A DNA stretch of 37,288 nt from a virus, in the UHGV virus genome UHGV-1407012. One strand, 5' to 3'. Below the pieces are notes generated by a model. It saw only the letters and a list, made by a program, of their open reading frames with translations. It did not search any database and had not been told where the DNA came from. The translations under genes were made by a program, and so were the position numbers. Shown piece by piece: positions 6,195 through 37,288 of this stretch. The first letter of the stretch is position 1; every line of letters begins with the position of its first letter.

Positions 6195-6437
6195 CACTTA
6201 CCTCGCTGTAACCTGCTTACTTGTACGATGACCAGCTGCGAAAAGCGCAACTTCTGGCAGGCAGACAGTACCACTCTTCAAATCAGCCTCCTTTTTCTTT
6301 TTCTATATCAAAAAGCTGCTTTGCTTTTGTGACTAAAAGCAAAAAAGCCTTCTCGCTAATGAGCAGCATTGCCGTTCATCCTGAACCCGCCGCGCTCCCG
6401 ACGCATGGTTTAATGTCGCGCCGTTCGACATGGCTTA

Positions 6438-8335: not shown

Positions 8336-9163
8336 ATGGGGTATGTCTCTATACACCGCCAGTTTATGGACAGCAGGCTCTATAAGGACTCTCAGGCAGT
8401 ACATCTTTGGCTTCACTTAATCCTCAAGGCTAATCACGAATCTACTGTCGTCAATACGGATATCGGGCCGATAACTGTTGATCGCGGTCAGATGATAACT
8501 GGACGCCCGTCGCTGGTCAGAGAAACATTCATCCCCGACAACAAAGTTCGGAGCTTATTACGGACTTTTGAGTCGAAAGGGATGCTTAATATTTGCTCGA
8601 TGGGGAAGAAATTTAGCCTGTTTACAATCGTTAAATATGACGATTTTCAGGCAAAAAATTGTCCAACGGTTGTCCAACGGTTGTCCAACGCAAACACCAG
8701 TAATGGCGCGGCTCTCAGCGGAGATTGTCCAACGGTTGTCCAACGGTTGTCCATAAACAATAATATAAATAATATCTCTAATACTGACGTATTAGAGAGT
8801 GCCACAGCAGACAAAAAGTCTGACAAGAAAAAACCTTCCGTTAGCTGTCAGGATGTTGTCGATGCTTACCACGAAATCCTTCCTGAAGCGCCAAAAATCC
8901 GCGCACTGAATGACAAGCGTAAAAACCAGATCCGAACGTTCTGGCGCAAAGCCGGAGTGATAACCCGCCAGCTTGACGGGCATGGGTTCACGATGCAGGA
9001 CTGGAGAAATTATTTGAGCTACGTAGGCGAAAATTGCCGATGGATGTTCGAAGAGCGTCCAAACCATCAACGCGGAACCGTCTGGCACAAAAAGGGATTT
9101 GATTTCCTGCTTAACGATAATACCTACCTGAAAGTTCGTGAGGGTGAACACGATGACCGATAA
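8336..9163 (+). CDS. Replication initiator (lambda O / P22 gp18 functional analogue) carrying the origin iterons
   Basis: ATG 8336 with AGGAGG RBS (track ORF starts 8273); iterons and AT-rich tract inside the gene; followed by the helicase gene. Confidence 0.75.
   Translation: MGYVSIHRQFMDSRLYKDSQAVHLWLHLILKANHESTVVNTDIGPITVDRGQMITGRPSLVRETFIPDNKVRSLLRTFESKGMLNICSMGKKFSLFTIVKYDDFQAKNCPTVVQRLSNANTSNGAALSGDCPTVVQRLSINNNINNISNTDVLESATADKKSDKKKPSVSCQDVVDAYHEILPEAPKIRALNDKRKNQIRTFWRKAGVITRQLDGHGFTMQDWRNYLSYVGENCRWMFEERPNHQRGTVWHKKGFDFLLNDNTYLKVREGEHDDR
8659..8757. repeat. Origin iterons: six 11-bp TTGTCCAACGG-type direct repeats in two triplets, followed by an AT-rich tract
   Basis: Triplets at 8659..8691 and 8725..8757; AT-rich 8757..8790; encode the repeated peptide CPTVVQRLS. 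Confidence 0.7.
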
Positions 9164-32284: not shown

Positions 32285-33952
32285 ATGTCAGATATCACCG
32301 CAAATGTTGTGGTAAGCATGCCTTCGCAACTCTTCACTATGGCTCGTTCTTTTAAAGCTGTAGCCAATGGCAAAATTTATATCGGAAAAACTGACACTGA
32401 CCCGGTAAATCCTGAAAACCAGATTCAGGTTTATATGGAGAGCGAAGACGGCTCTCACGTTCCTGTTTCGCAACCAATCATCATTAACGCTGCTGGTTAC
32501 CCTGTATATAATGGACAGATTGCCAAATTCGTTACCGTGCAAGGCCATTCTATGGCTGTTTATGATGCGTACGGTGCGCAGCAGTTTTATTTTCCGAATG
32601 TACTGAAGTACGACCCGGATCAGCTTGAGCAGCGTCTTGCATCATCAATAGGTTCTTCCATGGTTGGCATTACCGATGGAAGGACAGTGCATGATTTTAT
32701 ATCTGTTGATGACTATCAGAGAATTGGTGATATCCGTGGTTACGGGGCGACAAATGAAAACGTAAACCCTGTCAACATTGCCGTTGCCACAGGTGAGGCC
32801 AATGGTCTACTGAAGGTACCTAATGGAGTATGGAGCGGTAATTTTGAGTTAAAAAATAAAACTAGCATAACTGGTGAATCCATAACATCAACAGTTGTTA
32901 ACGTTCCTATAAACACGATCGGAATAAAGCCTGAGGGCTCTGACGTTAGAGGGATTACTATATCAAACATGAATCTCCAAGTTAACGGATCTGTTGCTGG
33001 CGGTCCTCCTGTTGGTAGCGGGGTCGGAATAGACATGTCTTTTTGCGGAAAGGCAGTTAACTGTGAGTTTAACAACCTTTATCTCGATTTCTTTGATATT
33101 GGTTACAACGCTGGATATGCTGATTTTTCAAATATTTATAACAATATGAGGTGCAATAACAACCGAATCGGGATTAACCTATCCAGTAACGGAACAATTA
33201 TTCAAAACGTGTTCAATGGGTGTTATGTTGCAAACTGGACGGCTTATGCCGTGAAAGTTTCTGGCGCTAGCAACCAGATATTCAACGCGCTTAACATGGG
33301 ACATAACGGGTCCGCCAATGCTTATTTCCTGCAGATAGATACGAACTCAAGAGGAATCATATTTAATCAACCTAACTTCGAAATGGACGTTGCAAACGGG
33401 AAAATTACAGCAGGAAGCCAGGCTATCGTGGTCGCCTCTAGTTCTGAGGTTACATTTAACTCCCCGACATTCAACAGGGTTAACGCTGCAGGGGCAAATG
33501 CCTACCTGTTCCGGGTTAGGGGTAACGCTATAGTACGTATAAACGACCCTCAAATCTACAACGACGATGGCACAATAGGTCACCTAATTATCAGTGATGA
33601 AGCTGTTGTTTATCTCAATGATCCAAATCGAATATTCACAGTAATTACTATCCAAGGTAATGGGAGGCTAATACGTGTTGACGAGAAGATATCAAACTCC
33701 CCTAACTATACAAACATTCTTACTTTAAAATCTGGAGACATAATTAACTTTGGATTCTATGCAAGATATGCAATGGCGGTTCCAGATTTTCACTCCAATA
33801 CTATGCCATCACCATTCAAGTACGCAGTGAGCTTTGACACTTACCATAGCAGTGGAACTGCCATTGCTCGAGTGTATGATACAACCACAGGAAATGGAGT
33901 ATCAAACATCAATGTTACATGTTTCGTACAGGCGTGGAGAGAGGATAGATAA
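32285..33952 (+). CDS. Tailspike: P22 gp9-like head-binding N-domain fused to a different beta-helix receptor-binding domain
   Basis: N-terminal ~110 aa ([11 protein letters not shown]...[13 protein letters not shown]...VLKYDPDQ) P22-like; remainder Asn/Gly/Ser/Thr-rich repeats typical of parallel beta-helix; ATG 32285 inside track ORF 32237..33952. Confidence 0.85.
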
Positions 33953-33984
33953 AAATAGGGCGGTTTCCCCGCCCTATTTTTATA
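33953..33984. terminator. Bidirectional rho-independent terminator shared by tailspike (+) and acyltransferase (-)
   Basis: ATAGGGCGG-tttcc-CCGCCCTAT stem flanked by A-run and T-run. Confidence 0.7.
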
Positions 33985-35047
33985 CTGTAACTAAATTGTC
34001 TTCATTTCTATTGGTTTTTCTTTTTAATTTAAGAAAATGTATTTCAAAAAGATAGTATGATGCAATTGATACTATATATGCGATAGCAAACCCACATGCT
34101 ATTATCACAGCATTATTGTTTACTCCAAACAAGGAGGACATTTTGTTTGCAATTGAAAAACACAGCAAATGCCACATATACAAACCATAACTTATCTTTC
34201 CTGTAAATGTTAATGGCTTTAATGATAATGCTTTTGTTATTATTTGTTTTTTCCCTAGCACACTCCACTTGTAAATGAAAAAAATTGCAGATGAAAAAAT
34301 CATCCCAAACGCTGTAAACATATACCAGCATTTCCCAGCCCAATCTACAGGGTTCCAAAAAGCATTAAGACCAACAGAATTTATTCCATTAAGAACCAGC
34401 CCAACACCTGCTATAAAAGTTAAAAATCCTGATTCATATGCGTACTTCTCATCTTTTATCTTTGAAAACAGAGCGCCAAGAACTAACATGTCAATGCAAC
34501 TGATAAGAGTTACATTTACAATGTATGGGTTTCCATCAGTGATTTGAAATATAAAATATCTTGATATACTTGATGTTATTATTAGTATAATAAAAATCAG
34601 ATTCATATTCTTTTTGTTTATGAAAAATATGAATAGAGGCCAAAGCCAGTAAAATTGTTCTTCCACTGCAAGAGACCAGGTGTGCCCCAAAATTCCAGGT
34701 GTTGTAACATTTATTCCTATATAATAGTTTTGTAGATAAGTTATAAACCACAAATAACCATCCGTTGGTTTCCCAGTTGCAATTAGAAGAATAAAGTTAA
34801 CAAGTAGGTAAGCATAAAATAACGGGAATATTCTAAGAGATCTATTTATAAGAAATCGTTTAATATAGTTACTAAAACCAGAGTCTTTATCCTCGATAAG
34901 GATTGAGGTAATTAAGAAACCAGATAAGCAAAAGAACAGCGGAACTCCAGACCAACCAAGAGAAAATCCTGAAACTTTGGCATGAAAAAGCATTACAATG
35001 AGCACCGCAATACCTCTCACACCATCTAAAGATTGTATATGTTTCAT
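33980..35047 (-). CDS. oac: Acyltransferase-3 family integral membrane O-antigen O-acetyltransferase (serotype-conversion type)
   Basis: N-terminal MKHIQSLDGVRGIAVLIVMLFH signature, about 10 TM helices, strongly AT-rich relative to the phage backbone; location between tailspike and int. Confidence 0.85.
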   Translation of the reverse strand: MKHIQSLDGVRGIAVLIVMLFHAKVSGFSLGWSGVPLFFCLSGFLITSILIEDKDSGFSNYIKRFLINRSLRIFPLFYAYLLVNFILLIATGKPTDGYLWFITYLQNYYIGINVTTPGILGHTWSLAVEEQFYWLWPLFIFFINKKNMNLIFIILIITSSISRYFIFQITDGNPYIVNVTLISCIDMLVLGALFSKIKDEKYAYESGFLTFIAGVGLVLNGINSVGLNAFWNPVDWAGKCWYMFTAFGMIFSSAIFFIYKWSVLGKKQIITKALSLKPLTFTGKISYGLYMWHLLCFSIANKMSSLFGVNNNAVIIACGFAIAYIVSIASYYLFEIHFLKLKRKTNRNEDNLVTV

Positions 35048-35237
35048 GCTAAAAATCCATATTCTACGGGAAGCGGGAGTCTATCAGATTTAGTTGATAT
35101 TATCTATATAGACTAACTAGATGTTATCTAGCGATTGACTGTCATTCTATGTATATTTTCACGCCTGTTATCATATAACTTGATCATTTGGTATTTTGAG
35201 AGATTAACTTCTTTTGTTTCCAGTGTGGCTATGCCAA

Positions 35238-36395
35238 TTACTCCACCTTTTCATCAATCCAGTCCGCCCACCACTGCATCATTTCTCTGCGCTTATCGAG
35301 ATACTGAGCATGGTTGTAAATCCCACGCACAGATCCGCCGTTGGCATGTGCCAGTTGCACTTCAATGGCGTCGGCAGGCCATTCGTGCTCGTTCATAATC
35401 GTGCTGAATTCATGCCTGAATCCGTGACCGCTTTCCAGCCCCTCATAGCCGATTTGTTTGATCACAAGCAATACCGCGTTCTCGCAGATTGGCTTCTTCT
35501 TATCGTTGCGTCCGGCAAAAACAAACTCTGATACCGGTTTAGTGATTGAGCTTAGCGTAGTGAGAAGTTCAATAACCTGGTCCGACATAGGAACCACATG
35601 AATCTTGCGTCCCTTCATCACATTGGCGTCGATGGTGATAATCCTGTTTTCAAAATCGACGTTCTTCCATTGCATGGAACGAAGCTCTTTCGTTCTTAGG
35701 GCTGTATAGCGTAAAACCTTGGTCGCAATGAGCGATACGATGCTTCCTGAAAATGTTGCCAGTGCTTTGTTAAATGCCGGGATCTGGTCTGCAGGAAGAA
35801 ACGGGAAGTTTTTCTTGCGGTATCCCTTCATGGCGTCAGCAAGGTCAGGTGCCGGGTTATATTTAGCCCTGCCGGTGACAATAGCGTAACGGAAAACCTC
35901 GCCGCATCTTCTGCGGGCTTTATTTGCTCGCTCCATTGCACCGCGATCTTCAAATCTGCGGATTACTTCCAGCAGTTGCATCGGCTCAATATCCTGAATC
36001 TCAAGACCGCCGATGATGGGTAAAATGTCGTCATCAAACATTTTGGCAAGTTCAGTTGCATAGCCTACTGACCAGACTTGCTTCTTGTGCTCGTACCATT
36101 CCTTGTAAATCGCACTAAAGGAATTGTTGTTAGACGAAGCCTTTTTCGCCTTTACCGGATCGATGCCGACCGAGATGTCTTTCCTCGCAGTCCATGCTTT
36201 ATCCCTTGCCTCTTGCAAAGTCATAAGCGGATATTTTCCGACGGTCAGGATTTTCTCCTTACCGTCAATCTTGTAGCGAAGCTGCCATACCTTTTTCCCG
36301 GATACAGGGACATAAAGGTACAGGCCATTACCATCGAGTAGGCGGTATGGTTTTTCTTTCGGCTTTGCTGCTTCAATCTGCTTAACAGTGAGCAT
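35238..36395 (-). CDS. int: Tyrosine integrase, P4-type with N-terminal arm-binding domain
   Basis: LTVKQIEAAKPKEKPYRLLDGNGLYLYV N-domain; catalytic HGFRH and C-terminal Tyr region; ATG 36395 (track start 36431 is GTG). Confidence 0.85.
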   Translation of the reverse strand: MLTVKQIEAAKPKEKPYRLLDGNGLYLYVPVSGKKVWQLRYKIDGKEKILTVGKYPLMTLQEARDKAWTARKDISVGIDPVKAKKASSNNNSFSAIYKEWYEHKKQVWSVGYATELAKMFDDDILPIIGGLEIQDIEPMQLLEVIRRFEDRGAMERANKARRRCGEVFRYAIVTGRAKYNPAPDLADAMKGYRKKNFPFLPADQIPAFNKALATFSGSIVSLIATKVLRYTALRTKELRSMQWKNVDFENRIITIDANVMKGRKIHVVPMSDQVIELLTTLSSITKPVSEFVFAGRNDKKKPICENAVLLVIKQIGYEGLESGHGFRHEFSTIMNEHEWPADAIEVQLAHANGGSVRGIYNHAQYLDKRREMMQWWADWIDEKVE

Positions 36396-36399
36396 GGGT

Positions 36400-36640
36400 A
36401 AAAATCCGGTGGGTAAAATTATTTTATCCACTTTTTACCCGTCATGGAGTACGGCTGTCAACGATCTGACGCGAACCATTACGAACTGTGAATCTACGGA
36501 AGGCTTGATATTCAGGGGATTTTGCGGACTGGTACGGATGGGAGCGAACTGATAAATGGTGTCCCCTGCAGACATCTACTTGACGCGGCAGGGGATTGAT
36601 TGGAATGATGTTTTTTAGATGTGAGAAATATTTTACCCGC
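36400..36640. repeat. int-xis intergenic region with five copies of TTTTACCC/GGGTAAAA in both orientations (candidate recombinase arm-type or regulatory sites)
   Basis: Copies at about 36406, 36415, 36440, 36620 and 36631, the last two as a tandem TATTTTACCC pair. Confidence 0.3.
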
Positions 36641-36644
36641 TATT

Positions 36645-36845
36645 TTACCCATTGGCGCGGCTTAAAAGCTTATTCTTGAATTCACAATGGTCACGATATA
36701 ACCATCTTGCTCGCCCGTGGATAACTTTGGCTTTAGGCAGGTCTCCGGACTTAATCCGGTCATAGATGAAGGTTTTACCGAAGCCAGTATCGGCCATGAT
36801 GAATTTCAAATCAACCAGTGAATCAGGCTGTAGTTCGTGTTGCAT
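36645..36845 (-). CDS. xis: AlpA-family excisionase/transcriptional regulator
   Basis: 66 aa with HTH ...LVDLKFIMADTGFGKTFIYDRIKSGDLP... and conserved Trp; upstream of int on the same strand. Confidence 0.7.
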   Translation of the reverse strand: MQHELQPDSLVDLKFIMADTGFGKTFIYDRIKSGDLPKAKVIHGRARWLYRDHCEFKNKLLSRANG

Positions 36846-36968
36846 GAGTGCTATCTCCGAATAGGGAATCGAACCTGCAAATCAGGCAATAAAAAACCGC
36901 ATTGATGCGGCGATGGTAGGTCTGGATATCATTGAGCAATGAACAGGCCTCATCGAGTGTGAGGCGGG

Positions 36969-37288
36969 TTAGTCCTTGCGTAGCTCGCTGATTCTTCTGT
37001 AAGTCTCTGGTGCTTTGTTTCCGTGTATCTTCATTTCAGACTTCAACAGAGCAACGAGGGAATCCCATTCGTTGAGGATTCCTTTGAATGCCGGAACGCG
37101 CTTTGCAACCTTGTTGAATGAATCTCTGATTTCTGGAATCTGCTCAACAAGTGCAACGCATCGTCTGAAATCTGCTGCGTCATGTGGAGCGCCGAAGTGA
37201 TGACCATAGATATTCTTTTTCACGTCCCAGGCGCTTGAGGCAAGAGTTGCGCTACTGATGCCGTCATCGCCGGTCGATTGCCATTTCA
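36969..37288 (-). CDS. Hypothetical protein, 5' truncated by window edge (C-terminal about 106 aa present)
   Basis: Frame of track ORF 36969..37223 stays open upstream to the window end; the track start is an internal GTG. Confidence 0.45.
   Translation of the reverse strand, partial: KWQSTGDDGISSATLASSAWDVKKNIYGHHFGAPHDAADFRRCVALVEQIPEIRDSFNKVAKRVPAFKGILNEWDSLVALLKSEMKIHGNKAPETYRRISELRKD

Follow-up and report, generated by a model that had tools for sequence, protein, structure and literature searches.

The IntS/TorI recombination module is common to phages that integrate at argW (PMC3509656). For KplE1 (CPS-53) of E. coli K-12, a 16-nt core has been stated, together with five TorI sites (GTTCG, GATCG and GTCCG) in two blocks and with IntS arm-type sites that, on the P′ arm, all contain TAAA (PMC2951348). 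In vitro excision of KplE1 requires IntS, TorI and IHF, and in vitro recombination with IntS and IHF, plus TorI for excision, has been shown for both KplE1 and HK620 substrates (PMC2951348). The -10 element of the KplE1 intS promoter overlaps P′1, its -35 element abuts TorI site I5, and both IntS and TorI repress the promoter (PMC2951348). An unusual layout with attP between xis and int, and with the int promoter in attL, has already been described for KplE1, HK620, Sf6, CUS-3 and Kapi1, the Kapi1 preprint placing attP between int and xis.

We analyzed a stretch of viral DNA of 37,288 nt (UHGV virus genome UHGV-1407012; hereafter the window), a mosaic P22-like genome whose closest whole-genome relatives are IME10, HZ41 and Sf6. 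We are highly confident that the spacer between xis and int, at 36396..36650, is the attP of the known IntS/TorI site-specific recombination module. Judged by its sequence, the locus belongs to the IntS/TorI argW module, every sequence-level defining feature of which was found. It shares with KplE1 the 16-bp core, the arm-type sites, the five TorI sites, the -35 and -10 of PintS and the argW target; the difference is that in K-12 the site is divided into attL and attR, with a defective prophage of 10 kb between them, whereas in the window, a complete P22-like genome, attP is undivided. In HK620 and Sf6 (Lederbergvirus), whose GenBank records (AF335538 and AF547987) label this core and these repeats attP, the genes follow, as in the window, the order tailspike, conversion gene where present, int, attP and xis. 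The block from int to xis, 35238 to approximately 36895, is 96–97% identical to HF4s, HK633, IME10, Sf6 and HK620.

The attP of phage lambda is similar in having a heterobivalent tyrosine integrase, arm sites flanking a short core, an RDF near the core and dependence on IHF (PMC2951348 and established knowledge). In lambda, however, attP lies downstream of int, whereas the attP of the window lies between xis and int and is directed to a tRNA 3′ end; unlike in lambda, the int promoter lies inside attP/attL, and int and xis transcription would therefore be uncoupled in the prophage. In the satellite phage P4, att likewise precedes int and overlaps the promoter of this gene, which controls its own expression, and the core sequence is that of a tRNA 3′ end; P4 differs from the module described here in its tRNA, leuX, its arm motifs and its RDF.

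The 16-bp core and its junctions at argW

The elements that define the locus are as follows.

36396–36650, minus strand (read from xis to int): complete attP with P arm, core, TorI sites and P′ arm, from the alignment with K-12 attL and attR and the HK620 annotation
36556–36571, minus strand: 16-bp core ATGGTGTCCCCTGCAG (the minus strand reads CTGCAGGGGACACCAT), the sole block common to attP, attL and attR
35238–36395, minus strand: integrase IntS, 385 aa, 381/385 identical to K-12 IntS; Pfam PF13356, PF22022 and PF00589
36645–36845, minus strand: excisionase or recombination directionality factor (RDF) TorI, 66/66 residues identical to K-12 TorI

The order of these genes places attP between the RDF gene and int, as in the described module. 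The IntS orthologue has the N-terminal arm-DNA-binding domain PF13356, and the RDF is orthologous to TorI over its whole length. The longest int ORF, 35238-36431, opens at a GTG at 36431 and would encode 397 aa; the 12 extra codons would cross the P′ arm sites, and the true start is almost certainly the ATG at 36395, as in K-12 IntS and in the gene calls of the lysogens (385 aa).

When the minus strand of the window was aligned with K-12 attL and attR, the identity of the site to the characterized system was directly visible: the xis side of attP matched the CPS-53/KplE1 attR at 140 of 145 positions (5 mismatches) and the int side matched attL at 186 of 192 (6 mismatches), which gives eleven base differences across the arms. 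Beyond a 16-nt block the attP, attL and attR partners were unrelated. This block occurs once in the window, and 15 of its 16 bases, read in reverse complement, give the 3′ end of argW, the gene for tRNA-Arg(CCU), CCA included; the core CTGCAGGGGACACCAT is thus the argW 3′ end plus 1 nt, with a single exact match at 36556-36571. The stretch TGGTGTCCCCTGCAG (36557-36571) corresponds to argW nt 61-75. The 'attP core' of the HK620 record (1368-1383) maps to the same sixteen positions of the window (match offset +35188), the core is annotated likewise in the Sf6 record, and it equals the 16-nt core given for KplE1 (PMC2951348). An earlier note on this DNA had held that the attachment site was not identifiable and that neither region flanking int contained a tRNA-like core; both statements proved wrong, as attP is found at 36396..36650 and its core includes the final 15 nt of argW as an exact reverse complement. 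Of the host tRNA 3′ ends with which that note had proposed a comparison, that of argW matches in the segment upstream of int. ARAGORN found no tRNA gene in the window, a blank that says nothing about the core, as no more than 15 nt of the tRNA are present in attP.

A 46-aa ORF runs across the attP core on the minus strand (36512-36652) and corresponds to HK620 hkaB and Sf6 gene 17. It is split by integration and is therefore expressible only from the excised form of the phage; it may well be spurious.

To follow the site into the host chromosome, an acyltransferase encoded beyond int was used as a lysogen probe because it is peculiar to this phage. Exact look-up of its protein in public assemblies located it in 147 blocks, and eight contigs were taken (L005-L012). 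All eight carried the order fadL, mlaA, yfdC, argW, int, a 190-bp spacer, acyltransferase and P22-like tail genes. In each, ARAGORN placed tRNA-Arg(CCU) at 8417-8491 and the core 16-mer lay at 8477-8492, with int next to it, and similarity to the window ended 0 nt outside the core in 8/8. The junction position is therefore a direct observation: integration at argW with the junction at the core was found in every one of L005-L012. Counted inward from the core, the contigs L006 (ABWAZB010000001.1) and L007 (AASPIU010000002.1) differed from the window by 5 mismatches in 3200 nt and are, by this sequence agreement, lysogens of essentially the same phage.

The opposite junction was read at eight attR loci, obtained by exact look-up of the TorI protein with L008 and K-12 added, all of them in related prophages and L006 and L007 not among them. 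The xis side differed from the window by 7–17 mismatches in 346 nt, and similarity stopped precisely where the core ends on its int side; over the next 60 nt, 13–20 of 60 positions were identical, as in random sequence. In the prophage form, int adjoins argW and xis adjoins dsdC; the K-12 CPS-53/KplE1 prophage likewise has tRNA-Arg(CCU) argW at its left border and dsdC at its right one. The mapping of attL and attR, a check named by the earlier note, placed the lysogen junctions within the upstream region that it had pointed out.

The module was present in 1900 of 5426 complete E. coli genomes. Among the split (prophage-form) matches listed for these genomes, the xis-side matches start at approximately 36550, and in phage records of the prophage form, such as CUS-3 and VT2phi_272, the int-side match ends at 36571. 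The 84-aa ORF at 36969-37223, by whose exact protein sequence the attR of the acyltransferase-bearing lysogens was sought, had no recorded match.

Two further observations were made at these loci. In some attR junctions with an identical TorI, the core varied by one base (CTGCAGGGGACGCCAT or CTGCAGGGGACACCAG; L018 and L019, both at 6275-6290, and L021), and the flanks of the variant cores were aromatic-dioxygenase genes or csc sucrose genes instead of dsdC, which suggests other host backgrounds or rearranged argW islands. Prophage remnants were also seen between two cores at argW: one of about 1.6 kb (L020, 4620-6290) with xis and without int, and one of about 11.6 kb (L008, 8477-20082) with int, the acyltransferase and early genes and without structural genes. 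These remnants show frequent in-place decay of such prophages.

The low-GC spacer and the acyltransferase downstream of int

The other region flanking int comprises two elements.

35048–35237, minus strand: AT-rich spacer from the int stop to the acyltransferase start; 190 bp, 34% GC; intact in 8 lysogens
33980–35047, minus strand: acyltransferase, Acyl_transf_3 (PF01757, E = 1.8e-25)

The spacer is not part of att. It had 0–1 mismatch to the window over its 190 bp in 8/8 lysogens, and, being uninterrupted in all eight, it contains no junction; a core placed in this spacer is refuted by the same observation. The earlier note had allowed that either flanking region could hold attP arm sites. 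This held for the upstream region, whose TTTTACCC repeats are arm sites, and failed for the downstream one, which has no att function.

The GC content is 29–38% in 33950-35237, and about 30% over the gene with its spacer at 33980-35237, against 45–52% in int, and the spacer is continuous with the acyltransferase gene in this respect. Similarity to every other IntS phage begins exactly at the int stop codon, 35238, and a search with the DNA of the acyltransferase and spacer against 50,697 phage records and 5,426 complete E. coli genomes gave no match beyond the last 64 nt of int. The exact acyltransferase protein was beside IntS at argW in all eight of the eight cases shown. The gene adjoining int differs among the related phages: it is oac in Sf6, there is none in HK620, and in the window the place is taken by an unrelated Acyl_transf_3 gene of low GC that has an upstream spacer of its own. 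The similarity of its product to Sf6 Oac is no more than remote (29% over 85 aa), while its position between tailspike and int is that of Sf6 oac, and the Sf6 record marks a 'putative oac promoter' in the corresponding place. The acyltransferase is probably a lysogenic-conversion gene, O-antigen-modifying and distinct from Sf6 oac. It was probably acquired horizontally, with the spacer as its promoter and leader, a reading that we put forward only weakly.

Sigma-70-like hexamer pairs directed toward the acyltransferase on the minus strand were found at 35127-35099 and 35171-35144. No intrinsic terminator was found downstream of int by a terminator scan. The repeats that had been reported for this region do exist: the palindrome CTAGATgttATCTAG lies at 35117-35131, and the direct repeat GAT(A/G)TTATCTA at 35096-35106 and 35120-35130. 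In first-order Markov simulations of a 190-bp spacer of 34% GC, a comparable palindrome arose in 36% of cases, a direct repeat in 12%, and both in 3.4%; promoter-like matches in the region numbered 10, against 8.9 in shuffles, and were not more frequent than by chance. The palindrome and the repeat are thus not clearly above chance, in contrast to the repeats upstream of int, which are clearly non-random.

Rather than promoter hexamers or chance occurrences, the palindrome and repeats could be an operator, bound either by a phage repressor or by a protein that regulates the acyltransferase gene. One predicted promoter is built from both copies of the direct repeat, which coincide with its -35 (35122-35127) and its -10 (35099-35104), and the palindrome overlaps the -35; the two features occurred together in only the small share of simulations given above, and the segment is conserved in the eight lysogens. 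Each feature by itself, however, is common by chance, the conservation may reflect a recent spread of the cassette, which is nearly identical throughout, and there is no known binding protein. We consider an operator in this spacer unlikely, and retain for the spacer the role of an upstream region of the acyltransferase gene.

Arm-type sites, TorI sites and the int promoter within attP

Between xis and int, the following sites were assigned, in the order from xis to int.

36643–36650, plus strand: P-arm IntS arm-type site TTTTACCC, overlapping the xis stop codon (motif scan, K-12 alignment, HK620 record)
36631–36638, plus strand: P-arm IntS arm-type site TTTTACCC (motif scan, K-12 alignment; HK620 repeat_region attP 1441-1463)
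36589–36601, minus strand: candidate IHF site AATCAATCCCCTG (pattern scan only; 1 mismatch to WATCAANNNNTTR)
36544–36551, minus strand: TorI (RDF) site I1 CAGTTCGC (K-12 coordinates of PMC2951348 transferred via the attL alignment)
36524–36531, minus strand: TorI site I2 CAGTCCGC (PMC2951348 coordinates via alignment)
36461–36488, minus strand: TorI sites I3, I4 and I5 (GTTCG, GTTCG and GATCG; 10-nt spacing; PMC2951348 coordinates via alignment)
36432–36461, minus strand: promoter PintS, with -35 TTGACA at 36456-36461 and -10 at about 36432-36438, overlapping P′1 (equals the K-12 attL promoter region)
36432–36440, plus strand: P′-arm site TTTTTACCC, the promoter-proximal P′1 (motif scan, K-12 alignment, PMC2951348)
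36422–36429, plus strand: degenerate P′-arm arm-type site TTTTATCC, with the TAAA motif kept (pattern scan)
36411–36418, minus strand: P′-arm IntS arm-type site TTTTACCC (motif scan, K-12 alignment)
36396–36403, minus strand: P′-arm IntS arm-type site, abutting the int ATG at 36395 (motif scan, K-12 alignment)

The motif TTTTACCC occurs in 6 copies in the 37.3-kb window, against 0.66 expected, and 0 of 100 dinucleotide-preserving shuffles reached 6, so that the arm motif is non-random. Five of the six copies sit in the spacer between the xis-like ORF and int, in both orientations, as had been noticed before: 36396-36403(-), 36411-36418(-), 36433-36440(+), 36631-36638(+) and 36643-36650(+), the last of which extends 6 nt beyond the end coordinate of the earlier note. 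With the degenerate site, the P arm has 2 arm-type sites and the P′ arm 3 perfect and 1 degenerate. Sites with TAAA are thus found on both arms, at positions homologous to K-12. Panis et al. (JBC 2007 and Virology 2010) reportedly map the arm and IHF sites.

The sixth perfect copy lies inside int at 36018-36025, where GGGTAAAA is read on the plus strand about 370 nt from the start codon, as a seventh arm-type-like motif. Four 'attP' repeat regions of the HK620 record map exactly on TTTTACCC copies, this int-internal one, which the HK620 annotators marked as an attP repeat, included. As a lone copy it is compatible with chance.

All five TorI sites (GTTCG/GATCG/GTCCG) were found between the core and the P′ arm, a GTTCG at 36545-36549 lying inside I1. 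The candidate IHF site lies between the P arm and the core, with an A-tract before it. The PintS region is identical in sequence to the K-12 promoter mapped in PMC2951348, and would accordingly place the int promoter in the P′ arm here as well.

Integration would proceed as in KplE1. IntS, as a tyrosine recombinase, would bind the TTTTACCC arm-type sites, two on the P arm and four on the P′ arm, with its N-terminal domain and the core at 36556-36571 with its catalytic domain, and would bridge arm sites and core. Together with IHF, it would carry out recombination between attP and the host gene argW, for tRNA-Arg(CCU), whose 3′ end has the same 16 bp; the tRNA would be regenerated in the process. 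The expected products are a left prophage end with int (attL: argW-core-P′-int) and a right end with xis (attR: xis-P-core-dsdC side). Excision would need TorI, which would occupy its five sites of the GTTCG type on the stretch from the core to the P′ arm. As the int promoter lies inside the P′ arm, Int and TorI would repress int, and after integration int would keep its own autoregulated promoter inside attL. The spacer at 35048-35237 would play no part in recombination and would form the region ahead of an acyltransferase gene of low GC that came in by horizontal transfer. The binding of proteins to the attP sites and their regulatory roles are taken over here from the literature on the KplE1 system, and the proteins of this phage, being nearly identical to those of KplE1, would be expected to behave in the same way.

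It could be argued that the TTTTACCC copies are merely operators or promoter elements for int autoregulation and not recombination arm sites, since the -10 and leader of PintS, a promoter that Int represses, share sequence with the P′ copies (PMC2951348). Two of the copies, however, are separated from the promoter by 230 bp, on the other side of the core, and become part of attR upon integration, and PMC2951348 treats the copies as intasome arm-type sites that double as operators, so that both roles coexist. A purely regulatory role is very improbable, and we keep to arm-type sites. That attP, or some of its arm sites, should lie in the AT-rich spacer at 35048-35237, in the style of lambda and P22 with attP after the 3′ end of int, would agree with the usual lambda-type gene order and with an AT-rich region carrying a palindrome with 6-bp arms and an 11-nt direct repeat, but is scarcely credible given a spacer that is contiguous in eight lysogens with no junction inside, lacks TTTTACCC, has repeats at chance level only, and shows no DNA similarity to HK620, Sf6 and K-12, which use the same Int.

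An argW T-arm fragment upstream of torI and a possible origin of the module

Besides the core, a second stretch of argW was found in the window.

36865–36880, plus strand: 16-nt argW T-arm fragment GGAATCGAACCTGCAA, the reverse complement of argW nt 46-61

In the tRNA, this T-arm stretch directly precedes, on the 5′ side, the nucleotides found in the core. In the window, it has the same orientation as the core and lies 293 bp away from it, with the xis leader, xis and the P arm between. Exact matches of at least 16 nt between the tRNA and the window are expected 0.001 times. K-12, HK620 and Sf6 have the fragment upstream of torI as well, and in 12 loci the conserved module ends 5–40 nt past it. 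The HK620 record has a putative cII-dependent promoter at the position of the fragment (putative pI/torI promoter region), and the torI promoter was called uncharacterized in PMC2951348. The fragment is not mentioned in PMC2951348, PMC3509656 or the Kapi1 preprint. A search of IMG/VR for the unsplit 30-nt argW block of T-arm plus acceptor gave, among the matches examined, only full tRNA genes at prophage borders or matches cut by contig ends.

The fragment may be non-accidental, either as the relic of a tRNA-derived attP of at least 31 nt that was split by a segment of RDF plus P arm, or as a working element (part of the torI promoter or a secondary Int site); we regard this suggestion as doubtful and offer it tentatively.

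The attP itself adds nothing beyond the annotation of an already known module on this mosaic P22-like genome. It carries little discovery weight, as the attachment site is textbook-level and has been dissected experimentally in KplE1, HK620 and Sf6; its practical value is a correct annotation of the phage, with integration at argW, attP at 36396-36650, the core at 36556-36571 and the int start codon ATG at 36395. If the T-arm fragment were indeed a relic, the module would have arisen when a segment of RDF plus P arm split a longer tRNA-derived attP.
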